This document shows positions 18,140 to 39,437 of a DNA stretch of 64,000 nt, piece by piece (the first letter of the stretch is position 1; each line of letters starts with the position of its first letter). A model generated the notes under the pieces. It searched no databases. It was not told the DNA's origin and saw only the letters and a list, made by a program, of their open reading frames with translations. The position numbers were made by a program, and so were the translations under genes. The stretch is from Desulfovibrio sp. (GTDB taxonomy: Bacteria; Desulfobacterota; Desulfovibrionia; Desulfovibrionales; Desulfovibrionaceae): positions 151,455 through 215,454 of the forward strand of contig NZ_JAAVBE010000019.1 in the NCBI RefSeq assembly GCF_014803725.1, written 5' to 3'.

Positions 18140-18140
18140 C

Positions 18141-18797
18141 ATGCCAGGGGTGTTCATTGCCGGCAATTCGGGGGCGGCCCGGGAATGTTACTGGATTTTG
18201 CGCGACCTTCAGGCCGCGTCGCCAGGACTGAGCGCCTATTATGAATTTGGCGGCTTTCTGAGCTGGCGGGGCTATGCGGGCGACCTGAAGGAACTTTCCG
18301 GCTTTTTCCGCGGGCCGCTGGAAGACCATGCCGTCGGCGCAGACGAGCTTTACATCATAGGGGTCGGGGCGCCGCACCTTCGGCGGGACATCTTTCGTCA
18401 CCTCAAGGAACGCGGCGCCAGGCTCATGAACCTCATCCACCCCTGGACGGCCATCTGCCCTTCGGCTGTCATGGGCGAAGGCAATGTGTTCCAGCGGGGC
18501 TGCACCGTTTATGCCAATGCGGTCATCGGCGACGGCAACTATATCAATGGCGCCGCCAATCTTTCGCACGACGCGCGCATCGGCGATTTCAACTTTCTTG
18601 CGCCTTACGCCATCGTGCTCGGCGGGGCGAGCATGGGTGATGGCAACCACCTGGGGCCCCACGCCGTCCTGCTCGAACATGCGCGCATGGGCAGCGGCAA
18701 TTTGCTGACACCAGGCAGCGTGCTCTACAAAGGCTCCGGCGACAATGCGCGCCTTTCCGGCAACCCGGCCCTCAAGATCGGCGCGATGGAGAACTGA
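18141..18797 (+). CDS. Left-handed beta-helix sugar acyltransferase (NeuD/PglD-like)
   Basis: N-terminal Rossmann-like domain, NLIHP, hexapeptide repeats, catalytic SHD and C-terminal GNPA. Confidence 0.85.
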   Translation: MPGVFIAGNSGAARECYWILRDLQAASPGLSAYYEFGGFLSWRGYAGDLKELSGFFRGPLEDHAVGADELYIIGVGAPHLRRDIFRHLKERGARLMNLIHPWTAICPSAVMGEGNVFQRGCTVYANAVIGDGNYINGAANLSHDARIGDFNFLAPYAIVLGGASMGDGNHLGPHAVLLEHARMGSGNLLTPGSVLYKGSGDNARLSGNPALKIGAMEN

Positions 18798-18801
18798 CAC
18801 C

Positions 18802-20178
18802 GTGGCCGCGGACTCCTTGCATATCCTTATCGCCAACAACTACACGATCCGGGGCGGTATCCCCAAGGCCGTGGCCGCACTGGCCAACGCCATGACCGAC
18901 CGCGGGCATCGCGTGACCATTCTGAACCAGCGGCCGGTGCCCCGGCTGCTCTTCCCGCTGTATCGCCTGTGGCGCGCTCTGCGCGACATGAGTTATCCGC
19001 CTGCGCCCGTGCCGGCCCCGCTTCAGGGAACCAGGCCTATCTCCCGGGATTATCCCCTTCGTGAAGGCATCCGTGTGCTCCACTTCCAGTTTACGGACAG
19101 GAACCTTAAGGTCCAGCAGCTGCGCGAGAGGATTCGCCAGCTCGATTCGGATGTCTGCGTGTGCCCGATGGCCGACGGCGCACATCTTGTCTGGGCCGTG
19201 ACCCTGCTCGGTTCGGGCGTGCCCTATGTGTATTCCGAACGCCACAGCCCGCAGACCATCGAAAACGAGTTCTGGAACCGCAAGGGGCGCCTGGCGGCCA
19301 TGAGCGGCGCAGACGCCATCCACCTGCTTCTGCCCTCCTACCTGGACAGCCTGCCGGATTTTTTGCGCGGCCGCGCCCGCGCCATCCCCAACGCCGTGAA
19401 ACTTCCCGGGCGCGCCGCGGACCCGGCGGGTGCGCCCGGCGCCCGGAAAACGCTGCTCTGGCTGGGGCGCCTCCACGAGCCGCTCAAGCAATGCCGCATG
19501 GCCGTGGATGCCTTCGCCCTGATAGCGCAAAAATTTCCGGACTGGGACCTGCACATTGTGGGCGACGGCCCTGATGGCCCCCTCATCCGCGCCCATGCGA
19601 AGCAGGTTGCGGGGCGCCACAATCTTGAAGGCCGGATACAGTTCCTGGGTGAGAGCGGCGATGTGCCCGCCCATTTTACATCAGCACAGGCCTATTGCTT
19701 TTCGTCCAGAACGGAGGGCATGCCCAACGCGTTGCTTGAGGGCATGGCAGCCGGCCTCCCCTGCGTGGCGTTTGCAGGTTGCCCTGGTGTGGCGGATATC
19801 ATCACTCACGGAAAAAACGGCCTTTTGGCGCAAGCCATGGATGCTTCAAGCCTTGCGGGGCAACTGGAACGCCTGCTGGCTGATGCGCCCCTCCGTGAGC
19901 GCCTGGGGGCCGCGGCGCGCGAATCCATGGCCCGCTTCTCCGAAACGGCGGTGTTTGACGCCTGGGAAGGGATGCTGCGCGAAGCGGCGGCCCAAAAAGG
20001 CGCCACCGTCATGGATGCTTTTTCGAGGGAGCCCTTCGCCAGCATGGCGCGCCTGTCCTCCCGGGCGCGCCAGGAATGGGCGTTGCGCGATTTCGGCCAA
20101 CCGCTCTGCGACAGCCTGGCGGGCAGGCTCCGGGAGGCCTGGTATATCTTCAGGTGGCGACTCCAGCAATGGCTATAG
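18802..20178 (+). CDS. Glycosyltransferase family 4
   Basis: SERHSP, LGRL and EGMPNALLE (EX7E) motifs; GTG start inferred. Confidence 0.88.
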   Translation: MAADSLHILIANNYTIRGGIPKAVAALANAMTDRGHRVTILNQRPVPRLLFPLYRLWRALRDMSYPPAPVPAPLQGTRPISRDYPLREGIRVLHFQFTDRNLKVQQLRERIRQLDSDVCVCPMADGAHLVWAVTLLGSGVPYVYSERHSPQTIENEFWNRKGRLAAMSGADAIHLLLPSYLDSLPDFLRGRARAIPNAVKLPGRAADPAGAPGARKTLLWLGRLHEPLKQCRMAVDAFALIAQKFPDWDLHIVGDGPDGPLIRAHAKQVAGRHNLEGRIQFLGESGDVPAHFTSAQAYCFSSRTEGMPNALLEGMAAGLPCVAFAGCPGVADIITHGKNGLLAQAMDASSLAGQLERLLADAPLRERLGAAARESMARFSETAVFDAWEGMLREAAAQKGATVMDAFSREPFASMARLSSRARQEWALRDFGQPLCDSLAGRLREAWYIFRWRLQQWL

Positions 20179-21464
20179 ACAAAAAACTCACCATCGCCAT
20201 TGGCGCATTGACACTCTGCATAGGCAAAGGTGGTACGGAGCGGGTAGCCACTGATCTTGCCCATGAAATGATCCGGCGCGGCCATACTGTCTTCATCCTC
20301 TGCAGGGATTACCACAAGCCGCCGCCCTTCACGCTGGATCCGCGCGCGCAATACATTCATCTGTCCCGCGATTTTTTCCGCGGCAGCCAGAAAGCCATCG
20401 CGGATGTGCGCACCCTCCTCAAATGCAGGGGCACCGATGTCTTCCTTTCCCTCCAGTCAGAATCCACCCACATGCTCTGGGCGCTGGCATGCATGGGAAC
20501 GGGCATTCCCTTTATCTGTTCCGAACGTTCCGATCCGCGTTTCACCGAGGCGGTTTCGTGGAACAGGCCGGGGCGGCATGCGGTTCTCGCGGCTGCCGAT
20601 GCCGTCCATGAGCTTTTGCCAGTGCATATGGAGACAGTACCCGAACAGTGGCGGTGCAAGGTGCGCTTCATTCCCAACGCCTGCCCCGGGACGGCCGCGC
20701 GGGCTGAAAGCCAGGCCGGACTGCACAAAAATCCCGCCATCCTCTTTTTGGGGCGCTTCATCAAGGGGAAACGTGCGGACGCGCTCCTGCGGGCTTTCGC
20801 CCTCCTGGCGCCGGAATTTCCGGGATGGACGCTTTCGCTCGTCGGCGTGGGGCCCGAGCGCGGGCGGCTCCGGCGCCTTGCTGCGTCCCTTGGCGTGGAC
20901 GCGAGGGTGACAGTTCGCCCCTCCCGCGAGAATGTGGCCGAGGATTACGCCGAGGCCAGCATCTACTGCCTCCCGAGCCGGGTCGAAGGCTTTCCCAACA
21001 CCGTTGTGGAGGCCATGGCGGCCGGGTTACCCGTGGTCGGGATCGCAGACTGCCCGGCCATGACTTCACTGGTGCATCACGGCGAGAACGGCGTGCTTGC
21101 GCCGGATGCCACCCCGGAAAGCCTTGCCGATACCCTGCGCCCCCTCATGTCCTCCGCCCGGGTGCGCGAGGCAATGGGGGAAAAATCGTTGGAGCTGTGC
21201 CAACGGCTTTACGAACGGCGCGCCGTATTTGACCAGTGGGAAAATTTCTTTCGTGAAATGGCCGCAAGCAAGGGACATACGGTCATGGACGGGTATGCTG
21301 CCGAGCCTTTCGCCAGCATGGCGCGCCTTTCCTCGGCTGCGCGCCGGGAGTGGCTGTTTCGCAACTTTGGACAACCCATGCCCTACAGCATCCAATGGTG
21401 GAAAGAACGCGCCGCCTGGTTCTGGCGCAATCTGCTTGGCAAATGCCGCCGCATTAAAAACTGA
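20169..21464 (+). CDS. Glycosyltransferase family 4 (paralog of the upstream gene)
   Basis: GGTERV, SERSDP, LGRF and EGFPNTVVE motifs. Confidence 0.88.
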   Translation: MAIDKKLTIAIGALTLCIGKGGTERVATDLAHEMIRRGHTVFILCRDYHKPPPFTLDPRAQYIHLSRDFFRGSQKAIADVRTLLKCRGTDVFLSLQSESTHMLWALACMGTGIPFICSERSDPRFTEAVSWNRPGRHAVLAAADAVHELLPVHMETVPEQWRCKVRFIPNACPGTAARAESQAGLHKNPAILFLGRFIKGKRADALLRAFALLAPEFPGWTLSLVGVGPERGRLRRLAASLGVDARVTVRPSRENVAEDYAEASIYCLPSRVEGFPNTVVEAMAAGLPVVGIADCPAMTSLVHHGENGVLAPDATPESLADTLRPLMSSARVREAMGEKSLELCQRLYERRAVFDQWENFFREMAASKGHTVMDGYAAEPFASMARLSSAARREWLFRNFGQPMPYSIQWWKERAAWFWRNLLGKCRRIKN

Positions 21465-21492
21465 TGACCACCGAGCAAAGAGAGAACCCCAG

Positions 21493-23172
21493 ATGACCGC
21501 CGGCCCGCTTTTTCGCAATGACGATGTCGCCTATGACACGGACATGTCCTGTTTTCCCCGCTTTTGCGATATTTTTCATCGGCGCGGCTATCGCCAGCTG
21601 CACGCCGTGACCCTGCGTGGCCTCTGCAACTATGCGCACAGGCATAACGGCAAATATTGCGTGTATGCGGACAGGCCCACACTTTCCCTTCTCTCCAATG
21701 ACCTCATCCGCTCCCTGTCCGAACCGTACCGTTTGGAAAACAACGAGGCGCTGGTGCGCTATCTGGCCGAAAGCCCGGATGACATCGCTCTGCACGGGCT
21801 TTACCATACCAATTATGCGGCCATGGAGTATGAGGAACAACTGACGGAAATGGAGCGGGGGCTGCGCCTCCTGCAGGAGCTTTTCCCGGGCAAGAATATC
21901 CGTTTTTTCGTCCCCCCCTTCAATAAAAGCAATGCTGCGACAAGACGCGCCGCCAACGTCCTCGGCCTGCGGGTGCTTGGTGACGAAGGCGTACATCTGG
22001 AAGAGCGGCTGGCAACGTTGACGCTGGAACCGGGCATCTGGTACCGATACCATCATCACCGTTTTTATCCTGGGAGTACGTTTGACACATTTCCGCTGAG
22101 CCTCGAACGGCTGGAAACCGCACTCGCGTCAGGGGGGCAGGGGGACGCGGCAACACCGTTGCCCATGCCTTCTTTCGACTACGAAGGGGACATCAGGCTG
22201 CTCAAGCGCCTCGTGGCACAACATGAGGCGCAGCCGTGGTTTGTGAGCACTGCCGAAAACCGGCTTAACCGCCGGGAACTCCAGTTGGCCATGGGCTGGA
22301 TATACGCCCATCTGGAACATGACGCCCCCATCTTTGAACTGGGATGCGGCAGCGGCAACAATCTCGTCTGGCTCGCCACAAGGGGCTATACCGCGCTCGG
22401 CGGCAGCGATGTGGACAACAAGGCCCTTGCCGTTGCCAAGGGCATGGCGGATTCGCTGGACGCGGACTGGAACCTCATGCGCGGCAGCCTTCTCGAACCA
22501 GAGCATGTTCCCGGCGGGCAGGCCCTGATCATGGCGATCAACTGCGCGATCTATCATGCGGACTTTGTCCTGTCCGACTTTCTCCAGGCCTGCGCGGGTA
22601 GGCTCAGGCGGGGAGGATGCGTCCTCATCGATCAGGTGGACGCATCGTTCAACGGCAATCCGCGCAACAGGTGGTATTCCCCCCAATGGGAACTGCCTGA
22701 GAGCGAAAGGACGAAACCTTCGGAATACCGCAGCCCACGGCTGGGGATGCTCCAGGTGGCGCAAAGCGCCGCCAAGGCCGGTTTCGAGATCGTGGCTGCC
22801 CTCCCATCCCTGCAGGAGGTGCCCCGTTGCGTCTATGTTTTCGCGCATCGGTGTGGCATGGTGCCCGCTCGGCGCCCGCTGCCCGTCCTTCCCCTGCCGG
22901 AAAGCATGGTCCAGCCCGCCATTGAGACCCTCTTCCACTCCGGTCTGTTCGACTGGGACTGGTACCGTAAAACCTATGTACGCGGCCCCGAAATCATGGA
23001 CCCCCTGGAACACTTTGTCCGTTTCGGCGCCACCAAGGGCTACCGCCCCAACCCCGACTTTGATCCCGCGCTCTATCGCCGCAGGTATATGAGCATTGCC
23101 GACCCCACAAATCCTTTGCTGCACGCGCTGATGACGGGACGGGCGCAGCCTGCGCGCCAGGGGACGGACTAA
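21493..23172 (+). CDS. Fusion: polysaccharide deacetylase-like (NodB/DUF2334-like) + SAM methyltransferase + FD-W-Y repeat module
   Basis: FRNDD, ALHGLYH and FFVPPFN deacetylase motifs; FELGCGSG SAM motif; C-terminal LFDWDWY...DPLEHF...G..P.PDFD. Confidence 0.7.
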   Translation: MTAGPLFRNDDVAYDTDMSCFPRFCDIFHRRGYRQLHAVTLRGLCNYAHRHNGKYCVYADRPTLSLLSNDLIRSLSEPYRLENNEALVRYLAESPDDIALHGLYHTNYAAMEYEEQLTEMERGLRLLQELFPGKNIRFFVPPFNKSNAATRRAANVLGLRVLGDEGVHLEERLATLTLEPGIWYRYHHHRFYPGSTFDTFPLSLERLETALASGGQGDAATPLPMPSFDYEGDIRLLKRLVAQHEAQPWFVSTAENRLNRRELQLAMGWIYAHLEHDAPIFELGCGSGNNLVWLATRGYTALGGSDVDNKALAVAKGMADSLDADWNLMRGSLLEPEHVPGGQALIMAINCAIYHADFVLSDFLQACAGRLRRGGCVLIDQVDASFNGNPRNRWYSPQWELPESERTKPSEYRSPRLGMLQVAQSAAKAGFEIVAALPSLQEVPRCVYVFAHRCGMVPARRPLPVLPLPESMVQPAIETLFHSGLFDWDWYRKTYVRGPEIMDPLEHFVRFGATKGYRPNPDFDPALYRRRYMSIADPTNPLLHALMTGRAQPARQGTD

Positions 23173-23261
23173 AGCCCACGCTGCCGTGGTGGGGCTCTGC
23201 CCTTCGCGGGGCCTTGAGTGACGCGAACACGATGGCGCCAAGCGACCAGGATGGAAAATAC

Positions 23262-24446
23262 ATGGACGCAAAAAAAATCAATAACATCTTCACGAAGTTA
23301 CGTATACACGCCCAATTCCTCAACCGGGAGTTCGCATATTTCCTGCCACTTGTGCGGCAAAAAGGCTGGCGCTGGACATGGCGCCATGCGAAGCTCTGCC
23401 GTCACGTGTATCTTCCCTGGCTCAAGAAAAAGCTCGCCTCCACAAGCAAGGGCTTTGACCGGGAGTTCTACATCGCCAAATACGTCCGTGGGCCCCTGCT
23501 CATTGATCCGCTGGAACACTACGTGCGCCGGGGCATGTATTACGGGCTGAAACCCAACGCCGCCTTTGATCCTTACCGATATCCTCCTTCCAACATGCAT
23601 CCGGGCGACCGGCGAGCCCCCCTTCTTCACCACATCCTCGCCCAGGAAAAGGGCGTCACGCTCCTGCCGTATCCCCTTGCGGCTTACAGGCCCGGCGTCG
23701 CCGAGAAGTGCACACGTGTCCATAATTTTTTTATCACCTGCTCAAAAAGCGGGCTGCGTTTCCCGCCCGGAAAAAAAATTCTCGATTTCGGCTGCGGGGA
23801 CGGACACATGGTCGTGGCCCTGCGCGCGTTTGGCTTCGATGCCTATGGCTACGACCTTGAGCCACGGATCGCGCCCCAATATGCGCCATTCAGGGAATTT
23901 TTCCGTGATGGAATGGGGGCCGTTGACGCTGAGCGGGGCCACGCCGGAGTCTCCAACTATCAGCTTAAGTCCGGCAAGTGGCATCTCCCCTACCCGAGCG
24001 ATACTTTTGACATAGTTTTTTCGCAGCAGGTTATCGAGCATGTGTTCGACCTAGACATCGCATTTGCGGAAATGGCGCGAGTGCTCAAGCCAGGGGGGAT
24101 ATCGCTGCATGTCTATCCTCCGAAGAATTGCTTCATGGAGCGCCATGTCCACGTTCCCTTGGGGCACCGCCTTCACTTCAGGTGGTACTTCTATCTCTGG
24201 TTCTTGCTCTCGAAAAACAACTCGATAAAAGGAGACACGGCATTCGATCGCGCAAGCCATGCCTATGACTTCGTTGATACGGCGACATGCTACACCTATA
24301 ATAATGATATGAAGAAGCTTGCTGCAAAATATTTTTCAGAAGTGCGGCTTATCTGCTCATACCCGCCTCCTGTGCCTTTCAACCCCTTCCTGATGTTTTA
24401 TAATCGTATTTTTCCGCATACCATGTTGCTCGCCTGCCGCAAATGA
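23262..24446 (+). CDS. SAM-dependent methyltransferase with an N-terminal FD-x-Y repeat module
   Basis: ILDFGCGDG, DTFDIVFSQQVIEHV and LKPGG motifs. Start uncertain (23232 or 23262). Confidence 0.8.
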   Translation: MDAKKINNIFTKLRIHAQFLNREFAYFLPLVRQKGWRWTWRHAKLCRHVYLPWLKKKLASTSKGFDREFYIAKYVRGPLLIDPLEHYVRRGMYYGLKPNAAFDPYRYPPSNMHPGDRRAPLLHHILAQEKGVTLLPYPLAAYRPGVAEKCTRVHNFFITCSKSGLRFPPGKKILDFGCGDGHMVVALRAFGFDAYGYDLEPRIAPQYAPFREFFRDGMGAVDAERGHAGVSNYQLKSGKWHLPYPSDTFDIVFSQQVIEHVFDLDIAFAEMARVLKPGGISLHVYPPKNCFMERHVHVPLGHRLHFRWYFYLWFLLSKNNSIKGDTAFDRASHAYDFVDTATCYTYNNDMKKLAAKYFSEVRLICSYPPPVPFNPFLMFYNRIFPHTMLLACRK

Positions 24447-24490
24447 TTACTTACTGAGGCTTGTGCCTTCTAACTCATGTGGGGAGATGA

Positions 24491-26566
24491 ATGGGACGTC
24501 TGTTGCTTTATACCGATCTGGGCCCCTCACGGGCATGGCTTTTCGCAGCCCTTCTTGCCAACCGGGAACGGCTTGCCGCCCGTGGTATGGTCTTTGCGCC
24601 CTTCGACAACGCGTATAACGATCTCATCCCCTCTCATCGCCATCTCTGGCCCTATTTCCCTCAGGATACGTTCAGCGCCCTGCAGGAGCAGCATTTCACC
24701 ACCATTGCGGAAGAACTCGGGAAAAACAAGGACGTGCTGTGCCTTATCCCGACCTTTTCGGAGACAGCCCATGCGAAAGCCTGGGAGGCGCTGAAGGAAC
24801 GCGTCGATTTTTCGCAGCATGAAGTGAAGGCGTTGACCATCGTGGGGCGCCCTTCACTTCTTCTTGAATACCATTGGCGTGAGTGGAAGGGCTCGTATTT
24901 CGCAGGGCTCGAAGAATATTATAAGGACATGGTTTCCCTGTGCGGTCAGCTCCCTGACCTGCTCACCGGCATGGAGAGCCGTTTTGGCGCCGCGGGCCAC
25001 CGCCTTGTGGCGGATACGTCGGCGCCCACGGAGGCCGTGGCCAATCTCCCGCTCCTGGATGTGGTCGCCGATTTCCTCGGGCATGCCCCGCTTGAGGCCC
25101 CCTTGGGGACTCCATATTCGTCGCTCTTCCTCCATTCGCATGCGGCGAGGCGCCTTGCCTGGGTTCCCAGTGTCGCCTATAACGCATGGCCGCCTATCGA
25201 TGATGCCAAGCTCATGGCGTCACTTCAGGCCTTGGACGCCGGACGCGCCAACGATGTCATGACCCCGGAGGATGTCAAGGCCATGTACCTGGAGCAGTGC
25301 GGGCCAGCAACGACTCGCCTCGAAACAATGCTTGCGCTGCCGCAAGGCTCGCTCGGCATTCCCCCCTGGTTTTCCGAAACCTCTGTTGCAGACAGGTTCG
25401 CGACGCCGGACGCGGCCAGCATAAGAGCCTTCGCCCGCGAGCTTGAGCCGGAAACGCGGCGTGCGCTGCTTGCCAGGCTGCATAACGACGAAGTCCTCCT
25501 CAACGAGGATCAGCGGGCTCTCTACACCGTGCTGAGCGAGGATGCGCCTGCGGAATTTCGCCAGGTGGGCGAACCGGAGGAACCTGCCCTCCTCACGGTA
25601 TTGACCATGGCCTATAACCAGGAAAAATATATCGCGCAATGCATGGATAGCGTTCTGGAGCAAAAAACGGAATTTCCCGTCCAGCATATCGTTCTCGACC
25701 ACTGTTCAGAGGACGCTACCCCGGCGATCATTGCCGAGTACGCGGCAAAGCACCCTTCTATCCGCCCCGTCTTGCTGGCAAAGCACATTCCCTACGAAAA
25801 CACGTGGGGCCTGCTTTCACGTTGCCGGACAAAATACGCTGCGCTGTGCGACGGCGATGACTACTTTACAGAGCCGACCAAGCTCCAGAAACAGGTGGAC
25901 TTCCTCGAGGAGAACCCCGATTGCGCCCTCTGTTTTCATCCCGTGCTGGCGGTTTTTGAGGACAAGAAGTATCCCCCCTTTGTTCATCCGCCGCAGCATA
26001 TGCTCCCGCGGGGCCTCCGCAAGAAGTATTATCTGGCCGACATGCTCAACGGCAACCTCATCCAGACCAACTCCGTGGTCTACCGCTGGCGTTTCCGCGA
26101 GGGGCTCCCGGACTGGTTCCGCCCCGACCTTTGTCCGGGCGATTGGTACTGGCACCTCCTTCATGCGGAGACCGGCAAGATCGGCTTCATTCCGGAAATC
26201 ATGTCCGTCTACAGACGCCATTCTGCCTCCTACTATGCCGATTCCTTCATTTCCCATGTGAATTTGCGCCGCCAGCACGGTATGGAGGAGTTGGAGACCT
26301 ATGCGGCCATGAACGCGCACTTCAAGAACAGGTATTTTCGCGCCTTTTCCACCTTGGCCAATGGCGTCTTCGCAGACTTTCTTGAAATTCAGGCCAGGGA
26401 CGGCACCTCGAACCTTCTGGACGAGGCCAGCAAAAAATATCCTGAGTTCACGCTCAACTTTTTGAAAAACCTGAAAAAACTGAAAGCGGAATCCAGATCT
26501 CCCCAGCCTGGGGGCCCGACGGGCACAGAAGCGCCCTTTGGCGGTATCGGCAAAACTCCTCTGTAA
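24491..26566 (+). CDS. Glycosyltransferase family 2 with an N-terminal degenerate sulfotransferase-like domain
   Basis: C-terminal MAYNQEKYI, DHCSED, CDGDDY and GDW motifs; N-terminal ALLANRERLAARGMVFAP. Confidence 0.8.
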   Translation: MGRLLLYTDLGPSRAWLFAALLANRERLAARGMVFAPFDNAYNDLIPSHRHLWPYFPQDTFSALQEQHFTTIAEELGKNKDVLCLIPTFSETAHAKAWEALKERVDFSQHEVKALTIVGRPSLLLEYHWREWKGSYFAGLEEYYKDMVSLCGQLPDLLTGMESRFGAAGHRLVADTSAPTEAVANLPLLDVVADFLGHAPLEAPLGTPYSSLFLHSHAARRLAWVPSVAYNAWPPIDDAKLMASLQALDAGRANDVMTPEDVKAMYLEQCGPATTRLETMLALPQGSLGIPPWFSETSVADRFATPDAASIRAFARELEPETRRALLARLHNDEVLLNEDQRALYTVLSEDAPAEFRQVGEPEEPALLTVLTMAYNQEKYIAQCMDSVLEQKTEFPVQHIVLDHCSEDATPAIIAEYAAKHPSIRPVLLAKHIPYENTWGLLSRCRTKYAALCDGDDYFTEPTKLQKQVDFLEENPDCALCFHPVLAVFEDKKYPPFVHPPQHMLPRGLRKKYYLADMLNGNLIQTNSVVYRWRFREGLPDWFRPDLCPGDWYWHLLHAETGKIGFIPEIMSVYRRHSASYYADSFISHVNLRRQHGMEELETYAAMNAHFKNRYFRAFSTLANGVFADFLEIQARDGTSNLLDEASKKYPEFTLNFLKNLKKLKAESRSPQPGGPTGTEAPFGGIGKTPL

Positions 26567-26580
26567 AGAATCTTCCACCC

Positions 26581-27720
26581 ATGGACACCATTGATTTTCT
26601 TGTCCTCGCTGCGCACGGCACCGGAATCCATGCCTTCCACACCTATGCGAACATGCTGCCCGGCATCAGTTGTCTTTCGCATGGCATCAGCGAGAAGGCG
26701 ATTAGGGAATTCCTCCGAAACCCAGGACACACCGCCAAGGGGCTCATCCTCGATACCCCGGCCCTGGACGAGGGCTTCCTGGACGCGATCCTCGCACGCT
26801 GCAGCCCGCAATGCACGCTGGTCGTCCTGAGCCGCGACCCTCTGGAGCGCCTCAAAAGCGTCGTCAACACTCACGTTCTTTGGTGGGCTGAAGCAACAGC
26901 GGGAGTCTTCGACCGCCCAGGGCACGCGACCAAGCTCTATGGGTGCGCCGATGTGAAAACCATGACGGAAACACTGCTCGACGCGCCAAACATGAACACG
27001 AGCTGGAAACTCCTGCCCCTGGTGGCGCCCCGAATGCACAACTTCCTTGTTTTCGACATCCGGGAGCTTTACCCTGAAAATGCGGAAAGAAGCCTGCTTT
27101 CTCTCCTCGCCCTGTTGGAAAAGGGAAAGCTCCCCCAAGGGAGCATCCCCGGTTTTTCCATACCGCGATCGTTGGTGTACAGGAAAGAAAACAGCTTTGT
27201 CCGTTTTATAAAAAAACTTCGTCTGCGTCATGGCGATGCCTGGTTCGCCATTAAGCCATGTCCATATGAATTTTGCTCTTCCTACGGGCTGGAGCAGGAC
27301 ATCGTCCTGCTCCGCGACCCGGCTGACTATGGCTTTTCACTGGGCGACTACGAGGGCGAGCTGGCATTTGTGCTTTGTGAGTACGACCACCACTCGCGCA
27401 CCAATGCGATGAATATTGTTCGTCAAAGGCTGGAACAGGAGCCGGAACTTCTTCTTGACTATTGTGCGGATATTTCACGCAGGCATGCGTTCGCCCAGAA
27501 ACTGGCAGACTGCGTGGCCCTGACCAATGATGGCCTGCTGGACTTCGCCCGCTCGGATCGGCAGTTCGGCTCCGCGCTCCGACAGTTCTTCCAGAATCAT
27601 GAGCATTGCCTTACAGCCTGCGGCCGAGACGCTTCCTCTTCTTGGCAAGCCACGCAAGACTTTTCCACAGCGCTGGCCTCGATCCTTGCCGCTGGGGCGG
27701 GCGCCACGCCCGGGGACTGA
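26581..27720 (+). CDS. Sulfotransferase-fold protein (DUF2972-like); candidate phosphoramidate transferase
   Basis: N-terminal LAAHGTG loop; VVLSRDPLERLKSVVN resembles the 3'-phosphate-binding motif of sulfotransferases. Confidence 0.5.
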   Translation: MDTIDFLVLAAHGTGIHAFHTYANMLPGISCLSHGISEKAIREFLRNPGHTAKGLILDTPALDEGFLDAILARCSPQCTLVVLSRDPLERLKSVVNTHVLWWAEATAGVFDRPGHATKLYGCADVKTMTETLLDAPNMNTSWKLLPLVAPRMHNFLVFDIRELYPENAERSLLSLLALLEKGKLPQGSIPGFSIPRSLVYRKENSFVRFIKKLRLRHGDAWFAIKPCPYEFCSSYGLEQDIVLLRDPADYGFSLGDYEGELAFVLCEYDHHSRTNAMNIVRQRLEQEPELLLDYCADISRRHAFAQKLADCVALTNDGLLDFARSDRQFGSALRQFFQNHEHCLTACGRDASSSWQATQDFSTALASILAAGAGATPGD

Positions 27721-27724
27721 CACG

Positions 27725-29359
27725 ATGCAGGATACACCTATATATGGGCTCCCAGATCTGCAGGTGGCGCTCTCGTCACTTCCTCCTGACGTTTTCGTCG
27801 TAGCCTTCTACATCTCCACCACAAGCGTATCACAGGACATCTGGATGAACCCCCTGGCGGCGCGTATGCGCGCCGCAGGCTACCTGTCCCTGGCGATTTG
27901 CACCCCGAAAAATGTGGACAAGATCCGGCTTGAGGCCGATCTTACCGCGGTGCTCGCGGAAACCGATCTCTCCCCACTCACCAGAATCAATGCCATCATC
28001 ATATCCGATATGGATACACGTAATGCGATATACCCGCTAACCGCAAAGATACTTGGCTGTATACACGCGTTCAGCGTGGCGAATGATGACCTGCCCTGGT
28101 CCACGGCCGAATCGGCAGGCCTGGACGGCTGGATGGTGCCCTTTCCTCTGAGCGCAGACACAAAGGCCGGCATCAGCAAGCTCTGGTCCGGCTTCACCAC
28201 TCCGGCAGGGACACGGCGTAGTGGCAACTTTCATATCATTCCCGTGGGCTATCCCGGTCTCGCCGTTCTCGCTGAGCGCCTGCGCACCACCAGGTCCGTC
28301 CCGGACGCCATCGTCTATGCGCCCGTGGGCCGCAGCGCCTATCCGGATTCCGGGGGCAACCGGCTCAGGCGCTACGGCGTCCGCACGGTGAGGACGCTTC
28401 TCAGCAGCTTCCCCGACTACCGCGTGATTTTCCGCCCTTACAAACTTGACCTGGATTCCCCCGAGGTCCGGGAGATATGCGCGGCTTTTGCCGGCGAGCC
28501 CCGCTTTCTCCTTGACACGGCCCGAGAACGGCATTTTTCCTTCGCCCGCGGTGCCCTGCTTGTGACTGACCTGTCCCATATCGCCTGGTCTTTCGCATTT
28601 TCAACCCTCCGTCCGGCGATCTATTTCCAGCCTTGGGCACTGCCTCCGCACCCGTCGGCCACGAGTTCGCCCAAAGGGCCGACGAACTCACGCGGGCGAG
28701 GGGAGAACACGCGGCAAGCCTTCGTGCCATGGGAATGCGGGTTCCGGGCCACTTCCTTTACCGGCTTGACAAGTGCTGCCAAGGAGTGCCTGGAAAAAAG
28801 GGACTTTTGGGAAAAAGCTCTCCGTGACCGGCGTGAAAGGCTGACAATGCCTTTTGATACCGCCCTTGACGATATTGTTGGCTTCATCCGCGACTTCGTG
28901 GAGGACAAGCCACGCCCGGACTGGCTCACCATCCAGCGTGACGGCGCCGTTGTCCAAAGCGAAGCGGAACTTGTCCAGCGCATGCTGCAGCAGCCCAGGG
29001 AGGCGCTCCCCAACATTTCCGCCAGCGCGCTCATGTGCCACAGTCCGCTCAGTCCGTTGCTGACGGCCCTTGCGTTGCACTCCGGCCATGAACTCATCCC
29101 CGAGGCAGGGTTCTATTTCCGTGAGGCAATTGAACGCGCCGCCAGCCACCTGCTGAGGAAGGAGTTTTCCTGTCGCTCGTATAAAGATGTGGATGTGCAT
29201 GACATCCGGACACTCTATTCCCTGGCTATCCTGGAAATGTTAAAAAAGAAGGATGCAGACGGACTCGCACTGGCGCAAGCCCTCCTGGAGCGCCTGGATG
29301 CTTTTTGCCAGAGGGACGCCCCGGATGTCCAAACGGCGTTCCTCCTGCCGGGGGGATAA
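27725..29359 (+). CDS. CDP-polyol phosphotransferase-like (TagF/GT-B) protein
   Basis: GYPG, IVYAP, VIFRPY and LLVTDLSHIAWSFAFSTLRPAIYF match the TagF-type motif order. Confidence 0.55.
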   Translation: MQDTPIYGLPDLQVALSSLPPDVFVVAFYISTTSVSQDIWMNPLAARMRAAGYLSLAICTPKNVDKIRLEADLTAVLAETDLSPLTRINAIIISDMDTRNAIYPLTAKILGCIHAFSVANDDLPWSTAESAGLDGWMVPFPLSADTKAGISKLWSGFTTPAGTRRSGNFHIIPVGYPGLAVLAERLRTTRSVPDAIVYAPVGRSAYPDSGGNRLRRYGVRTVRTLLSSFPDYRVIFRPYKLDLDSPEVREICAAFAGEPRFLLDTARERHFSFARGALLVTDLSHIAWSFAFSTLRPAIYFQPWALPPHPSATSSPKGPTNSRGRGENTRQAFVPWECGFRATSFTGLTSAAKECLEKRDFWEKALRDRRERLTMPFDTALDDIVGFIRDFVEDKPRPDWLTIQRDGAVVQSEAELVQRMLQQPREALPNISASALMCHSPLSPLLTALALHSGHELIPEAGFYFREAIERAASHLLRKEFSCRSYKDVDVHDIRTLYSLAILEMLKKKDADGLALAQALLERLDAFCQRDAPDVQTAFLLPGG

Positions 29360-29493
29360 AAGAAACCGCATGACTCTGCTGGGGGCATGCCCCGCGGGCT
29401 GTCATGGGCTTTGGCACACCCCCCCTGGCTGGAGCGCCAGCGGCCCGCGGCCCGGTGCATCGCCCTAGCATCCGCCACGCCAGGGAGAAATAT

Positions 29494-29522
29494 TTGCAAA
29501 TTATTCCACAGCATGCTATGAA
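29494..29522 (+). promoter_or_regulatory. Putative extended -10 sigma70 promoter for the phosphoramidate operon
   Basis: TTGCAA-N17-TATGAA with TG at -15/-14, in an AT-rich gap. Confidence 0.5.
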
Positions 29523-29660
29523 TAAAAAATATCGGCAGCCCTTACGCGCGCTTCCCCCTCCAGAGCAATGCCTGCAAATCCCTCAATACCGGAGCAAATC
29601 CGGCAAAGCCCACTGAAGAGGCCCCTCGGAAAACGCCGTGCAAAGGACGTCCCCCCCGAG

Positions 29661-32039
29661 ATGAGCGCCACCCCCTTCACCTTTTCCTCCAAGGCCGACA
29701 CTCTGGCCGCGCTCTCCCGCTGGCCGGAACTCAACATCCCCACGGTGTTCGCCTTCACCGTGGCGGAGTGGCGCGCCGATGCCGGGGCGGTGCATGCCGG
29801 GGCCGTGGCCGCGCTTGGGACTGCCCCGGGCCTGCGCGCGGCCGTGCGCTCCTCCTGCCGGCGGGAGGATTCGGCGGCCTGTTCCGGCGCCGGCGCCTTC
29901 CTTTCGCGCCTTGATGTGCCGCTGGACGACGACGACGCCTTTGTCGATGCGGTCGAACAGGTCATCGCCTCCTATGGCGGGGCAGCCCCGGACGACCAGG
30001 TGCTCGTGCAGCCCATGATCCGCGAGCCGGCCGTCACCGGGGTCATCATGACCCGCGCCCTTGCCGACGGCGCGCCCTGGTATGTCATCAACTATGACGA
30101 CGAATCCGGCAAGACCGACACCGTCACCGGCGGCACCCATGTGGGCAAGACGGTCTATGTCTACCGCGAGGCACGGGAAGGCGATTTCGACTCCCCGCGG
30201 CTCGCCGCCTTCGTGGGGCTGGCGCGCCGGCTTGAGGCCCTGTGCGGTACGGACGCGCTGGATATCGAGTTTTGCCTCGATGCGGAAAATACCCTTCATC
30301 TGCTTCAGGTGCGGCCCATCTGCGCCGGGAGCCAATGGCCGGACTCCATCCCCGCGGCGCGCATCGGGCGCGTGGCCGAATTCGTGGCCGACCGCACCGG
30401 CCCGTGCCCCGGGCTTTTCGGGCAGCGCTCCATCCTCGGGGTGATGCCGGACTGGAACCCGGCGGAAATGATCGGCATCCTCCCCCGGCCGCTGGCCGCC
30501 TCCCTCTACCGCAACCTTATCACGAGCCGCGTCTGGGCCAAGGCGCGGGAGCGCATGGGCTATCGCACGCTGCCGCCCACCGAGCTCATGCCGCTCATCT
30601 TCGGGCGCCCCTACATCGATGTGCGCGCGAGCTTCAATTCCTTCCTGCCGGCGGGGCTCGACGCCGGCACATGCGAAATCCTCGTCAACGCGTGGCTGGA
30701 ACGACTGGAGGCCAACCCGCAGTTTCATGACAAGATCGAGTTTGAGATTGCCCAGACCGCTCTCGACTTCAACTTCGACGCCGCGCTGGACGCGCGCTAT
30801 CCCGGGCTGCTCTCGGCGCGCCGCCGGGAGGAGTTTCGCGCCGCCCTCACCCGCCTGACGGCAGCCTGCCTCGATCTTTCCCCCGCGGGCACTCTGGCCG
30901 GCGCGATGGACGCCGTGGCCGAACTGCGCGGGCGCCAGGCGGCGCGGCCCTTCGTCAGCGCCGCCGAGCCCGGGCGCCTCGAAGACCTCCCGCCCCTCTT
31001 GGCCGAATGCCGCAAGTACGGCACCCTCCCCTTCTCCATCCTGGCGCGGCATGCCTTCATCGCCGAAAGCCTGTTGCGCTCGGCCGTGACGGCCGGCGCG
31101 CTTGCGCCTGAGCGCGTGCAGACGTTCAAGGCCACGGTGCGCACCATCTCCGGCGAGCTCTCGCGCGAATTTCAGGATGTCTGCGAAGGCCGGCGCGACG
31201 CCGCGGCCTTCATGCGCAAATACGGGCACCTGCGGCCCGGCAGCTATGACATCCTTTCGCCCCGCTACCTTGACCGGCCGCAAATCTTCGGGGAGGGCGG
31301 CCGCCCACAACGCCCGAGACCCGGCGCGCCCTTTGCGCTCACCCCGGCCGAACGCGCGAGCCTCGAGACCCTGCTGCGCGGAGCCGGGCTCGGCGTCAGC
31401 CCCGAAGAACTGCTGGAATATGCGCGCCGGGCCATCGCCGGCCGCGAGCACGCCAAGTTCATCTTCAGCCGCAATCTTTCGGACGCGCTGGAGATCATCG
31501 CCTTTTTCGGCGAGCGCGCCGGTTTTGACCGCGAAGCGGCCTCCTTTTTCGAAATCCAGCCTCTGCTCGACTGGACGGTCAGCGCGCAACCCGAAACGCC
31601 CCAGGAGCATTTCGGCCGCCTCGTCGCGGCCAACCGCGAGCTTCTGGCCCGCGCCTCCGGGCTCAAGCTCGGCTACCTTATCCGCTCGGTGCGCGACGTG
31701 TATGTGGCCCCGCAGCACCGCGCCGCGCCCAATTTCGTGGGCACGGGCGAAGCGCTGGCCCCGGTGGCGCGCCTTTTTGCCGGCAGCCCCTGCGATGTGG
31801 ACCTCACGGGCAAGATCGTCTGCATCGAAAATGCCGACCCGGGCTTTGACTGGATCTTCACCCGCCATATCGCGGGCCTCGTGACGCGCTTCGGCGGGGC
31901 CAATTCGCATATGGCCATCCGCTGCGCGGAATACGGGCTGCCGGCGGCCATCGGCACGGGCGAAAGGCTGTTCGACATGGCACAGGCGGCGGAGACGCTC
32001 TATATCAAGCCGGCGGCGGCCATCCTGGAGGCGCGCTGA
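29661..32039 (+). CDS. PEP-synthase-like L-glutamine kinase (Cj1418 homolog)
   Basis: N-terminal ATP-grasp (VRSS, VLVQPM, DIEF, LLQVRP), central MPDWNPAEMIG, C-terminal phospho-His domain (DPGFDWIF, GGANSHMAIRCAEYGLPAAIG). Confidence 0.85.
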   Translation: MSATPFTFSSKADTLAALSRWPELNIPTVFAFTVAEWRADAGAVHAGAVAALGTAPGLRAAVRSSCRREDSAACSGAGAFLSRLDVPLDDDDAFVDAVEQVIASYGGAAPDDQVLVQPMIREPAVTGVIMTRALADGAPWYVINYDDESGKTDTVTGGTHVGKTVYVYREAREGDFDSPRLAAFVGLARRLEALCGTDALDIEFCLDAENTLHLLQVRPICAGSQWPDSIPAARIGRVAEFVADRTGPCPGLFGQRSILGVMPDWNPAEMIGILPRPLAASLYRNLITSRVWAKARERMGYRTLPPTELMPLIFGRPYIDVRASFNSFLPAGLDAGTCEILVNAWLERLEANPQFHDKIEFEIAQTALDFNFDAALDARYPGLLSARRREEFRAALTRLTAACLDLSPAGTLAGAMDAVAELRGRQAARPFVSAAEPGRLEDLPPLLAECRKYGTLPFSILARHAFIAESLLRSAVTAGALAPERVQTFKATVRTISGELSREFQDVCEGRRDAAAFMRKYGHLRPGSYDILSPRYLDRPQIFGEGGRPQRPRPGAPFALTPAERASLETLLRGAGLGVSPEELLEYARRAIAGREHAKFIFSRNLSDALEIIAFFGERAGFDREAASFFEIQPLLDWTVSAQPETPQEHFGRLVAANRELLARASGLKLGYLIRSVRDVYVAPQHRAAPNFVGTGEALAPVARLFAGSPCDVDLTGKIVCIENADPGFDWIFTRHIAGLVTRFGGANSHMAIRCAEYGLPAAIGTGERLFDMAQAAETLYIKPAAAILEAR

Positions 32040-32683
32040 TGCTCGGCATCACCATGCGCGTCATGCGCCACACCTATTCCGGGGGCGCCGTGGAGGAACG
32101 CGACGCCCTTGCGCGGGACTGGCCCCGCTTTCTCCGCCAGGTGTTTCCGCAGGAGCCGGTCCTCTATCTCCCCAATATGGGCGCGGAAATCACGGGCTTC
32201 GCCGCGGGCGCCGGGCTCACCGGGCTCATTTTTTCGGGCGGGGAGGACTGGGGCCTCGTGCCGGAACGCGACGCCACGGAGGCCGCGCTCTTCGCCTGGG
32301 CGCGGGAGGCCGGGCTGCCGGTTTTCGGCGTGTGCCGGGGCGCGCAGGCCATCAACCTGCTCATGGGCGGCCGGCTCACAGGCTGCGACGGGCATGTGGC
32401 TGTGCGGCATGCGGTGGAGCTGGCGCGCCCCGTTGCCGGGAGCCCGCGCCATGAGGTCAATTCCTTCCATGCTCAGGGCATACTCCGGGGGGGGCTGGCC
32501 CCGGGCCTCGAAGCCCTCGCCCTGGCCCCGGACGGCACAGTGGAGGCCTTCACCAGCGCGGACGGCCGCATCGCCGCCGTCATGTGGCACCCCGAACGCG
32601 AAGCGCAGCCGGCGCCTCTGGACACGGCGCTTCTGCGCGCATGCCTGGGCCGAGGTTTCGGCGAGACAGCAGGAGAACGATGA
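32039..32683 (+). CDS. Class I glutamine amidotransferase-like gamma-glutamyl-CDP-amidate hydrolase (Cj1417 homolog)
   Basis: GVCRGAQ nucleophile elbow, VNSFH and WHPE motifs; coupled to both neighbours. Confidence 0.82.
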
Positions 32684-33465
32684 CCATGAACGACGGTACG
32701 GCGGCCGTCATCCTCGCCGCGGGCCGCGGCTCGCGGATGCGGGAGCTCACGGCCGAGCGGCCCAAGTGCCTTGTGGAGCTCGCCGGCCGCCCCCTCCTCC
32801 ACTGGCAGCTCGACGCCCTGCGCGGCGCCGGCATCCGGCGCATCCTCGTGGTGCGCGGCTATGCCGCCCAGTGCCTCGCCGGCGACTTCGCCACCACGGA
32901 GAATCCGCGCTGGGCCGAGACCAACATGGTCGCCTCCCTGCTGTGCGCGGGCGCCTTCGCGCGCGAGTTCTTCGCCAGGGGGGGCAAGCGGCTCGTCGTC
33001 TCCTATTCCGACATCGTGTACCACCCCGACCATGTTCGCAGGCTGCTCACCGCCACGGAAGACATGGCCATCACCTACGATACGGAATGGGAAGCCCTCT
33101 GGAAGCTGCGTTTTGAAGACGTGCTCTCGGATGCCGAGACCTTCCGGCAGGAGGGGGGCATCCTGCGCGAGATCGGCGGCAGGGCGGCCACGCTCGAAGA
33201 GATCCACGGGCAGTACATGGGCCTGCTCTCCTTCTCGCGCGCCGGCTGGGAGCGCCTGGAGGCAGCATGCGCCGCCCTTGGCCCCGAGGCCGTGGACAAG
33301 CTGGACATGACGGGCCTGCTGCGCCTTTTGCTCGCGCAAAATATCGCCATCGAGGCCGTGCCCGTGGCCGGCCGCTGGTGCGAGGCCGACAGCGGCACGG
33401 ACCTCAAGACCTATGAAGAGGCGCTCGCACGGGGCGCCTGGTCGCATGACTGGCGGCAGTGGTAG
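32680..33465 (+). CDS. CTP:phosphoglutamine cytidylyltransferase-like (Cj1416 homolog, LicC family)
   Basis: [20 protein letters not shown] and GQYMGL motifs. Confidence 0.82.
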
Positions 33466-33509
33466 CTGCGGCCACACTGATACTCGAATAACCGCAACGC
33501 TAGGCGGCG

Positions 33510-33548
33510 TTCTCCCTGTTTCGGCGGAGGCGCCGGAACACGGGAGAA
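33510..33548 (+). promoter_or_regulatory. Long hairpin sequestering the RBS of the methyltransferase
   Basis: TTCTCCC-TGTTTCGGCG-(GAGG)-CGCCGGAACA-C-GGGAGAA, 3 nt before ATG 33552. Confidence 0.55.
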
Positions 33549-33551
33549 GCT

Positions 33552-34304
33552 ATGACGGTTGAATGGGATTACACGGCACTGGCGGATGCGTACCTGAAAC
33601 GCCCCGACTATTCCCCGGCCGCGCTCACGGCGCTGTTCCGTATCGCCTGCCTCAAGCCGGGCGACAAGGTGTGCGACATCGGCGCCGGCGTGGCTCACCT
33701 CACCCTGCCGCTGGCGGCCTATGGCTGCGAGGTGGATGCGGTGGAGCCCAATGACGCCATGCGGGCCAACGGCATGAAACGTACGGCCGACCTCGCCACC
33801 GTCCACTGGAGCAAGGGTACCGGCGAGGCCACGGGGCGCCCTGCCGGCGTTTATGATTTCGTGACCTTCGGCTCCTCGTTCAATGTCTGCGACCGGCAGG
33901 CGGCGCTGCGCGAAAGCCACCGCCTGCTCAAGCCGGGCGGGTATTTCGCCTGCCTCTGGAACCACAGGGACCTGGACGACCCGGTGCAAAAAGCCATCGA
34001 GACCATCATCCGCGAGAGCATCCCGGGCTATGGCTACGGCACCCGGCGCGAGGACCAGTCGGCGGTCATCACCGCCTCCGGGCTTTTTGAGGATCTGGTG
34101 AGGGTGGAAGGCGCCACCGTGCAGACGCAGAGCGTCGACGATGCCATCGAGGCCTGGCGCTCGCACGCCACGCTCCAGCGCCAGGCGGGCGAAGCCTTCG
34201 GCCCCATCGTGGACAAGCTGGCCGCCCATCTGCGCTCGCTGGGCACCGATACCCTCCACATCCCTTACACCACACGCGCCTGGATCGCGCGCCGCAAGGA
34301 CTGA
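33552..34304 (+). CDS. SAM-dependent methyltransferase (Cj1419-like, phosphoramidate O-methylation candidate)
   Basis: EWDYTALADAYLKRPDYS N-terminus, DIGAG and VEPNDAM motifs; embedded in the phosphoramidate cluster. Confidence 0.75.
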   Translation: MTVEWDYTALADAYLKRPDYSPAALTALFRIACLKPGDKVCDIGAGVAHLTLPLAAYGCEVDAVEPNDAMRANGMKRTADLATVHWSKGTGEATGRPAGVYDFVTFGSSFNVCDRQAALRESHRLLKPGGYFACLWNHRDLDDPVQKAIETIIRESIPGYGYGTRREDQSAVITASGLFEDLVRVEGATVQTQSVDDAIEAWRSHATLQRQAGEAFGPIVDKLAAHLRSLGTDTLHIPYTTRAWIARRKD

Positions 34305-34305
34305 A

Positions 34306-34824
34306 ATGCAAACTTCCCGGAAAAATGGCCGCGTGTTCTGGATCACCGGCCTTTCCGGCGCCGGCAAGACCACCCTGGCCCGGGCGCTCCAGCAGGCGCT
34401 CCCGGGCTCGCTCCGGCTGGACGGCGACGAACTGCGCGAAGCCCTGGGCGCCAGCGGCCAGGGCTTCGACGCGGAGAGCCGCCGGCGCCTGGCCCTGAGC
34501 TATGCGCGGCTGGCCGGCCTTCTGGCGCGGCAGGGGGCCACGGTCATCGTGGCCACCATTTCGCTCTTCCACGAGCTCCACGCCTGGAACCGCGCCAACC
34601 TGCCCGGCTATGTGGAGATATTCCTGGACGTGCCGGAGGCTGTGCGCCGCGGGCGCGACCCCAAGGGCCTGTATGCCGGCAATGTGCGCCATATGGCCGG
34701 AGGCGAGGTCAAGGCGGAACTGCCGCTTGCCCCGCACCTGCGCCTCACGGGCGGCGAAAGCCTTGAGGACGCGCTGGCGCTCGTGCTGGAGCTTGCGGCA
34801 GAGCCCGCGGCGCGCAACGACTGA
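34306..34824 (+). CDS. APS-kinase-like cytidine diphosphoramidate 3'-kinase (Cj1415 homolog)
   Basis: WITGLSGAGKTT P-loop, LDGDELR and RDPKGLY motifs; context favours Cj1415 over CysC. Confidence 0.8.
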   Translation: MQTSRKNGRVFWITGLSGAGKTTLARALQQALPGSLRLDGDELREALGASGQGFDAESRRRLALSYARLAGLLARQGATVIVATISLFHELHAWNRANLPGYVEIFLDVPEAVRRGRDPKGLYAGNVRHMAGGEVKAELPLAPHLRLTGGESLEDALALVLELAAEPAARND

Positions 34825-34983
34825 CGCTTCCGCCCCCTGGCGCCCGGCCTCTCCCGTTCGCCGCGCTCCGCCCCGGCTTGCCAAGGCCGCGCCTCTCTGC
34901 CACTATGCGGGCATTGGGGAGCCCCGGTCGCCGGCGCCCGGCATGCGTCCGCAGGCCCTCCCCCCTTGCTGAACGGAGCGGCC

Positions 34984-36213: not shown

Positions 36214-36256
36214 CCCGCGGGGCGGAAGAGCTCCGCAGCCGCAAGCGGGGAAGGAC

Positions 36257-39426: not shown

Positions 39427-39437
39427 GGGGATATGAG

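Follow-up and report, generated by a model that had tools for sequence, protein, structure and literature searches.

A predicted phosphoramidate transferase with a sulfotransferase-like core beside a donor-synthesis operon in Desulfovibrio

A stretch of 64,000 nucleotides from contig NZ_JAAVBE010000019.1 of Desulfovibrio sp., referred to here as the window, contains an open reading frame (the target, Table 1) whose product is probably a cytoplasmic group transferase that puts phosphoramidate on a cell-surface glycan. The first-pass annotation of the window had regarded this protein as an orphan. This was not borne out: the target is a remote and N-terminally shorter relative of the known O-methyl phosphoramidate (MeOPN) transferases of Campylobacter. 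It is not a new kind of system, and represents a truncated, highly divergent variant of these enzymes in a new host group. The assignment draws on computed results, namely the gene, its conservation, the predicted fold, the equivalence of motifs, the remote homology to the Campylobacter proteins and the synteny with genes for synthesis of the donor.

Predicted fold and nucleotide-binding motifs

The target contains the sequences AAHGTG and R85-D-P-L-E-R-L-K-S93, and a residue count confirmed both, at A10-G15 and R85-S93. The first-pass annotation had placed them in the positions of the 5'-phosphosulfate-binding (5'-PSB) and 3'-phosphate-binding (3'-PB) motifs of sulfotransferases that use 3'-phosphoadenosine 5'-phosphosulfate (PAPS). 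Their location in the AlphaFold2 (AF2) model and a profile alignment with heparan sulfate 3-O-sulfotransferase 3A (3-OST-3A) are both in agreement with this placement.

An AF2 calculation with five homologues gave a predicted local distance difference test score (pLDDT) of 45, and this model was discarded. With a 40-sequence alignment the pLDDT was 94.7 and the predicted TM score 0.91. The model consists of five core strands alternating with helices (residues 1-180), a β-rich insertion (200-270) and a helical C-terminus (273-373). The HGTG segment is part of the loop that joins strand 4-9 to helix 13-25, and the RDP segment is located at the end of strand 74-84, ahead of helix 87-106. In a Foldseek comparison of the model with the PDB, ranks 1-15 were all occupied by PAPS-dependent sulfotransferases with probabilities of 0.87-0.99; among them are a Schistosoma sulfotransferase, TPST, 3-OST-1 and 3-OST-5, NDST1, the bacterial proteins S4 and 3rnl, and SULT7A1. 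A library of predicted viral structures (BFVD) was led by sulfotransferases likewise, with the best four and seven of the ten top matches belonging to this class (E about 1e-3, probability 1.0). The sulfotransferase fold that the first-pass annotation had expected is thus the one that the structure comparisons return. Nucleotide kinases were found lower in both lists, with probabilities of at most about 0.5. The target sequence has no Walker A motif of the form GxxxxGK[ST], and therefore it is not a P-loop kinase.

The sequence comparisons point in the same direction. When the profile of the N-terminal domain was compared with PDB sequences, the top match was 3-OST-3A (1t8t, E 0.04). In this alignment 'asHgsG' falls on 'GVKKGG' and 'RDPlerLkS' on 'RDPVTRAIS', in the same order; the 3-OST-3A segments represent the 5'-PSB loop and the 3'-PB motif of sulfotransferases. 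Residue H12 of the target aligns with the KK of 3-OST-3A. No Pfam sulfotransferase model matches the target itself. Two of its relatives have sub-threshold matches in the same region: Sulfotransfer_1 in the protein designated P0012 (residues 6-105, E 0.14) and Sulfotransfer_2 in P0024 (residues 34-109, E 0.014). A sulfotransferase-like core in the model, though remote, is well supported because these individually weak lines of structure and sequence evidence agree. No statement on a sulfotransferase fold for MeOPN transferases was found in the searchable literature.

Several other segments of the target deserve attention. Residue D58 is invariant in one alignment of the family (A1), at least 90% conserved in another (A4), and opposite the Glu of 'MEKTPSY' in 3-OST-3A, and we infer that it is a candidate general base. 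The segment N96-W102 is a candidate for contact with the nucleotide or the transferred group. The segment F158-P165, for which the consensus in a 33-sequence alignment is DIxDLxP, we take to resemble the 'YEDL..dP' segment of sulfotransferases. The β-rich insertion (residues 201-272) is probably part of a cap that binds the acceptor. No membrane segments are predicted in the target.

The family and its relation to the Campylobacter transferases

A word-indexed search returned only four homologues with 46-53% identity, all from uncultured Desulfovibrio. When 1.84 billion representative proteins were searched with a profile, 38 were found at E <= 1e-3, of which 26 were at E <= 1e-30. The family is therefore real but rare. 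Use of the 33-sequence profile in a word-indexed search for homologues yielded no further members. Scans with the pattern SVxNTHxxWW, which is the most conserved stretch of the family, found one locus in genome contigs and one in metagenome contigs. In a search of sequencing runs, two DNA runs from gut metagenomes were the only ones found, each containing 5-8% of the sampled words, and the plasmid collection had no match for the family member P0006.

In the 33-sequence alignment, where identity to the target is 17-53%, R85 and P87 do not vary, and conservation is at least 90% at H12, D86, S93, N96 and P228. An alignment of the N-terminal domain (A6, 26 sequences) has H12, R85, P87 and N96 as invariant residues. 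The consensus of the family can be written as HG(S/T)G ... RDPLxRLxSVxNTHxxWW. Since the HGTG and RDP motifs are conserved across 33 divergent sequences, they are, at the sequence level, a hallmark of the family and not chance strings.

The first-pass annotation had pointed to Cj1421 and Cj1422 of Campylobacter, and this link is supported by the NCBIfam model NF058596 ('O-methyl phosphoramidate transferase', Cj1421/Cj1422/CJJ81176_1420 type), which 20 of 33 relatives of the target match, the best with an E-value of 2e-17. Over their full length, the family proteins align with the part of the 596-position profile that runs from 241/243 to about 583: residues 4-361 of P0006 with 241-583, residues 6-346 of P0012 with 243-575, and residues 7-101 of P0020 with 243-340. 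The relatives that match NF058596 are in turn found by the target's own profile with E-values of 1e-54 to 1e-82 (4.7e-82 for P0006 and 2.8e-56 for P0012). By these profile comparisons, the homology of the target to NF058596, though transitive, is solid, and the target family corresponds to the C-terminal ~350 residues of the Campylobacter enzymes. Among the 120 closest of the more than 5000 homologues of the window's Cj1418-type protein, all at least 49% identical, none is from Campylobacter, and the comparison with Cj1421/Cj1422 is profile-based only.

The RDP motif had been placed inside the DUF2972 region (Pfam PF11186) of the Campylobacter proteins. This detail has to be corrected, as the RDP motif lies upstream of the DUF2972 model, near position 325 of NF058596. 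The weak likeness to DUF2972 itself falls in the C-terminal helical domain. Three relatives have sub-threshold matches, and in two of them the match runs co-linearly along the C-terminal end of the model: P0015 (residues 322-377 with 140-196 of 199, E 0.0085) and P0020 (residues 291-366 with 119-194, E 0.046). The target has no Pfam match to DUF2972. Of the 25 window proteins compared with Pfam, none scored for DUF2972 or NF058596; 15 of them (18745-38223) were also compared with NCBIfam.

The functional background comes from Campylobacter genetics. Mutants in cj1421/cj1422 and cjj81176_1420/1435 lose the MeOPN of the capsule (PMC11800397, PMC3907429), and these transferases set which capsule sugar bears it (PMC11800397). 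The N-terminal ~240 residues of Cj1421 and Cj1422 are nearly identical to each other, and for one Campylobacter MeOPN transferase a 'transmembrane domain' has been reported to follow residue 244 (PMC5808241). This residue is located approximately at the start of the region homologous to the target family. The reported segment may be a hydrophobic first β-strand of the DFIVLAAHG type and not a membrane helix.

The co-occurrence with the precursor operon that the first-pass annotation had predicted was found in six of the seven informative lineages. In each of these, homologues of Cj1418, Cj1417, Cj1416 and Cj1415 are no more than a few kb away from a family member that is 21-50% identical to the target; four family loci were too short to judge for such linkage. 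The linked lineages are represented by the window together with locus L001, and by loci L005, L008, L014, L015 and L017. In L005 the donor operon starts at the end of the contig. P0006 (33% identity) is beside the operon in L008, P0015 is right behind the kinase gene in L015, and P0034 (21% identity) is right behind a methyltransferase gene in L017. In L014 the Cj1418-type gene begins ~350 bp downstream of P0025. In the window, all four homologues are located 1.9-7 kb downstream of the target in the same orientation.

More than 5000 proteins match the Cj1418-type protein of the window at E <= 1e-10 against 38 representatives of the target family, and it follows that the target family is only one of several completions of the pathway. 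Two operons found through their Cj1418 homologues, from Fibrobacterota (L012) and Desulfonatronum (L013), are without a member of the target family. The L013 locus, from Desulfonatronum parangueonense, encodes a protein of 369 residues (17691-18803, minus strand) with a canonical-looking sulfotransferase loop (SMSRTGTS), a 3'-PB motif RSPLDMLAS and a match to Sulfotransfer_3 at E 1e-4. In this protein the fold may have been recruited a second time, independently; alternatively, the protein may be a true sulfotransferase. Its hhalign comparison with the profile for the target family's N-terminal domain aligned the two 3'-PB motifs but did not reach significance (E 0.21). At the edge of the L015 cluster, a 562-residue gene (1-325) has Sulfotransfer_3 and Methyltransf_24 (TylF-like) domains.

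Two further observations concern the architecture of the family. Paralogy of the target with the N-terminal domain of the upstream glycosyltransferase, with the downstream partner protein or with the deacetylase-methyltransferase of the locus was tested and none was found. In L014 (1568-3748), P0025 consists of a family member with a C-terminal domain of class I methyltransferases dependent on S-adenosylmethionine (SAM) and a repeat rich in Ser, Glu, Lys and Asp. The fused domain was considered as the operon methyltransferase and rejected, having weak likeness (E 1e-5) to the product of 23214-24446 in the window. Since it is not of the operon type, the fusion is weak evidence.

Proposed reaction and alternative explanations

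The likely donor of MeOPN is CDP-phosphoramidate 3'-phosphate (PMC11800397). For the window we infer as follows which nucleotide is the donor, what accepts the group, which residues are catalytic and when methylation takes place relative to transfer. The Cj1418-, Cj1417-, Cj1416- and Cj1415-type genes would make 3'-phospho-cytidine 5'-diphosphoramidate, with the Cj1415-type kinase adding the 3'-phosphate to cytidine diphosphoramidate. The target would bind this nucleotide in the way known for PAPS in sulfotransferases: the 3'-phosphate would be held by R85 and S93, where strand and helix meet, and the 5'-diphosphoramidate by the H12-G-T-G loop that follows strand 1. With D58, H12 and H98 as candidates for the conserved acid or base that activates it, a hydroxyl of the sugar could then attack the terminal phosphorus in line, and cytidine 3',5'-bisphosphate would leave as the counterpart of adenosine 3',5'-bisphosphate. 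The acceptor site may be created by the β-rich insertion and the C-terminal DUF2972-like helical domain, and these variable parts would select the acceptor. The operon methyltransferase, a candidate for O-methylation of the phosphoramidate, would add the methyl group before or after the transfer. Binding of the donor through the 3'-PB motif would provide the rationale for the 3'-phosphorylation step of Cj1415, and with it a reason for the ATP spent there.

Several points weigh against this assignment. The Foldseek matches in the PDB are remote, with E-values of 1e-2 to 1e-1, TM scores of 0.26-0.47 and root-mean-square deviations of 5-16 Å. The catalytic Lys or Arg of the 5'-PSB loop (PKxGTT or PRSGTT type) is replaced family-wide by the His of AAHGTG. 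The link to NF058596 is transitive: the target and its 50%-identical relative P0002 have no Pfam or NCBIfam match even at E 10, and the tabulated relatives score 12-47 bits against a family cut-off of 600 bits. The N-terminal ~240 residues of the Campylobacter enzymes are absent, the alignments of the family beginning within the first 12 residues. There is no operon within 10 kb of P0012 in L011, and there is no target-family gene within 10 kb of the operon in L012. A literature search found no report of MeOPN in Desulfovibrio. No MeOPN transferase, Cj1421 and Cj1422 included, has been assayed in vitro, and the enzymology is described as unclear (PMC13276843). Finally, the conserved partner gene downstream, whose product matches no family model, is linked to the operon almost as tightly as the target.

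This last point affects the proposal of the first-pass annotation that the target is the missing transferase which completes the pathway. Fold, family and synteny support this role, but the target is not the sole candidate for it. The 544-residue partner could itself move the phosphoramidate from the CDP-based donor, with the target as an accessory protein that binds the 3'-phosphonucleotide or the acceptor, or the two could form an obligate complex; we regard this arrangement as unlikely, though it is the most serious of the alternatives. Homologues of the partner (32-60% identity) adjoin family members in five lineages (L001, L005, L007, L008 and L015), upstream or downstream, and the pairing persists where the gene order is flipped. 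In the Fibrobacterota locus (CP064986), a protein of 1326 residues without a Pfam match (15612-19592) is encoded right behind the Cj1415-type kinase; it contains two partner-like repeats (blastp E 4e-15 for residues 872-1010), and its occurrence there without a family member within 10 kb favors the partner. H93, D113, R216 and P217 (numbering of a 300-residue segment, A8, which starts at residue 22) are invariant even in the distant repeats, and the constancy of these His, Asp and Arg residues is a further point for the partner. The partner motifs VGYP, YAP and LVTD.SH presumably resemble those of CDP-glycerol glycerophosphotransferases. On the other hand, the partner has no match in Pfam, NCBIfam or the plasmid collection and no meaningful one among the PDB sequences (two profiles); it does not match the N-terminal part of NF058596 and shows no likeness to the genetically validated transferases. 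It is absent in L017, where the family member still follows the operon. In addition, the partner does not explain the 3'-phosphate of the donor, while the target keeps an invariant 3'-PB motif.

The target could also be a genuine PAPS-dependent sulfotransferase acting on the same glycan, its proximity to phosphoramidate genes being the ordinary clustering of a polysaccharide locus. The fold and the intact R..S 3'-PB motif would suit such an enzyme, the host, as a sulfate reducer, has abundant APS (adenosine 5'-phosphosulfate), and canonical Sulfotransfer_3-type genes are found near other such operons (L013 and L015). We nevertheless consider it very improbable, because the Lys or Arg of the 5'-PSB loop has given way to His in the whole family, the target lacks a Pfam sulfotransferase match, the relatives reach significant E-values against the MeOPN transferase model and not against sulfotransferase models, and the linkage to Cj1418-1415-type genes persists across lineages in which the other genes of the cluster differ. 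There is a similarly slim chance that the target acts otherwise on a 3'-phosphonucleotide, with a lipid or protein as the acceptor or by binding or recycling cytidine 3',5'-bisphosphate: the conserved motifs argue for nucleotide binding only and P0012 (L011) lies outside any glycan cluster, but the window locus and most of the related loci are full of glycosyltransferases, and the homologous Campylobacter enzymes determine the capsule sugar that bears MeOPN (PMC11800397).

The assignment of the target as a phosphoramidate transferase can be extended to a more general and rather doubtful proposal. All MeOPN transferases, Cj1421 and Cj1422 among them, might be repurposed sulfotransferases that have kept the 3'-PB motif to recognize the 3'-phosphate added by Cj1415 and use a His loop in place of the PAPS lysine, Desulfovibrionaceae and some other anaerobes having a minimal, stand-alone catalytic module that forms a two-component system with an undescribed ~520-residue partner, which replaces the Campylobacter N-terminal domain. 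If this is true, surface glycans decorated with phosphoramidate would be common in gut sulfate reducers.

Gene neighborhood and comparison with known systems

The coordinates of the target, its segments and the adjacent genes are presented in Table 1. Counted from the first gene for a family 4 glycosyltransferase (GT4) at 18745, the target is the sixth gene of a long, tightly spaced run on the same strand. It is preceded by two GT4 genes, a deacetylase-methyltransferase gene, a methyltransferase gene and a gene for a family 2 glycosyltransferase (GT2), whose product probably builds the acceptor glycan. The distance from the end of the GT2 gene to the target is 14 nt, and that from the stop codon of the target to the partner gene is 4 nt. 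The target gene has no poly-G/C tract of the phase-variation type, the sole homopolymer of at least 6 bases being A7 at 27210.

Table 1. Positions in the window of the target, its sequence segments and neighboring genes
Feature	Coordinates	Strand	Description
Upstream GT2 gene	24491..26566	+	~360-residue N-terminal domain and GT2 domain; Glycos_transf_2 at residues 369-516; syntenic in L001, L005, L007
Target open reading frame	26581..27720	+	379 residues; predicted phosphoramidate (MeOPN-type) transferase with sulfotransferase-like core
A10-A-H12-G-T-G15	26608..26625	+	Loop connecting strand 1 with helix 1, counterpart of 5'-PSB loop; aligned to GVKKGG of 3-OST-3A
D58	26752..26754	+	End of core strand 52-57; conserved in closer relatives
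R85-D-P-L-E-R-L-K-S93	26833..26859	+	3'-PB type motif at strand-to-helix junction
N96-T-H-V-L-W-W102	26866..26886	+	Family-specific conserved helix segment right behind 3'-PB motif
F158-D-I-R-E-L-Y-P165	27052..27075	+	End of fifth core strand and start of next helix (strand 154-159, helix 165-179)
β-rich insertion, residues 201-272	27181..27396	+	Strands 213-217, 220-228, 241-245, 261-268; conserved N204, F206, C227, P228
C-terminal helical domain, residues 273-373	27397..27699	+	Helices in model; weakly DUF2972-like
Partner gene	27725..29359	+	544 residues here, ~500-550 elsewhere; no family or PDB-sequence match
Cj1418-type L-glutamine kinase homologue	29661..32039	+	NCBIfam PRK05849, E 7.7e-255; frame opens at 29568, likely start ATG 29661
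Cj1417-type gamma-glutamyl-CDP-amidate hydrolase homologue	32039..32683	+	NF045546, E 4e-24, below family cut-off; Peptidase_C26
Cj1416-type cytidylyltransferase homologue	32680..33465	+	NTP_transf_3; likely start ATG 32680; kept in all related operons
SAM-dependent methyltransferase	33552..34304	+	250 residues; Methyltransf_11/25; orthologues in L001, L008, L013, L015
Cj1415-type kinase homologue (APS-kinase fold)	34306..34824	+	PRK05541, 130.9 bits (cut-off 127); APS_kinase

The G+C content is 54-60% in 23214-29359, which covers the methyltransferase, GT2, target and partner genes, against 67-71% in the donor operon at 29568-34824. This suggests a mosaic locus, the acceptor-specific part of which was acquired separately. 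The N-terminal domain of the GT2 protein (24491-25570) is poorly conserved, with 26% identity to the syntenic homologue of L005, and has no family match and no PDB match. Genes for an FabH-like ketosynthase, a short-chain reductase and a hexapeptide acyltransferase (15992-18797) are located before the glycosyltransferase genes, likewise in L001, a possible sign that the glycan contains an N-acylated sugar. On the minus strand, 39513-44372 encodes a protein of 1619 residues with RTX calcium-binding repeats and cadherin/Ig-like domains, followed by a GT4-like gene on the same strand (38260-39510); this large protein may be a secreted adhesin. The L001 locus has an extra methyltransferase of 277 residues (16584-17417) between the cytidylyltransferase and the 250-residue methyltransferase, which is missing from the window. 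The two methyltransferases of L001 would parallel Cj1419 and Cj1420.

Campylobacter has been given as the only known source of MeOPN (PMC6429109), and according to the group that elucidated the other steps of the pathway the last ones, transfer to the sugar and methylation, were biochemically undefined in June 2026 (PMC13276843). The presence of the full donor operon together with a transferase homologue in a gut Desulfovibrio-type genome, and of more than 5000 Cj1418-like proteins that extend to other anaerobes, suggests a wider distribution of this decoration, or of a relative of it, than has been assumed. The target is most useful as a tractable entry to the enzymological question. As a single-module homologue of 379 residues, it may suit expression and assay better than the 600-residue Campylobacter enzymes, and the model makes testable predictions: R85 and S93 should bind the 3'-phosphate, H12 should replace the PAPS lysine, and cytidine 3',5'-bisphosphate should be released.

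It is useful to compare the target with three known systems. The CDP-glycerol glycerophosphotransferases of the TagF/TagB type represent the other known way for such a transfer, in which a glycan hydroxyl receives a phospho-group from a donor activated with CDP, and would be the model for the partner as the transferase. They are a mechanistic analogue only: they have no sequence or structure link to the target or the partner, the likeness of the latter consisting of the motifs given above. With the PAPS-dependent sulfotransferases, the target has in common the five core strands, the N-terminal strand-loop-helix at the 5'-PSB position and the RDPxxRxxS 3'-PB motif, with the same spacing of 8 residues from R to S. 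It differs from them in the additional β-rich insertion and the helical C-terminal domain of ~100 residues. The donor expected for the target is 3'-phospho-CDP-amidate, so that a phosphoryl-type group and not a sulfuryl group would be moved.

The Campylobacter transferases Cj1421, Cj1422, CJJ81176_1420 and CJJ81176_1435 are the closest comparison. Donor genes of the Cj1415-Cj1418 type and a SAM methyltransferase gene are found alongside in both, and by analogy the same reaction would be expected for the target. However, the target family has a conserved partner of ~520 residues and is without the poly-G/C tract that is typical of C. jejuni, and the host of the target is a gut Desulfovibrio-type bacterium.

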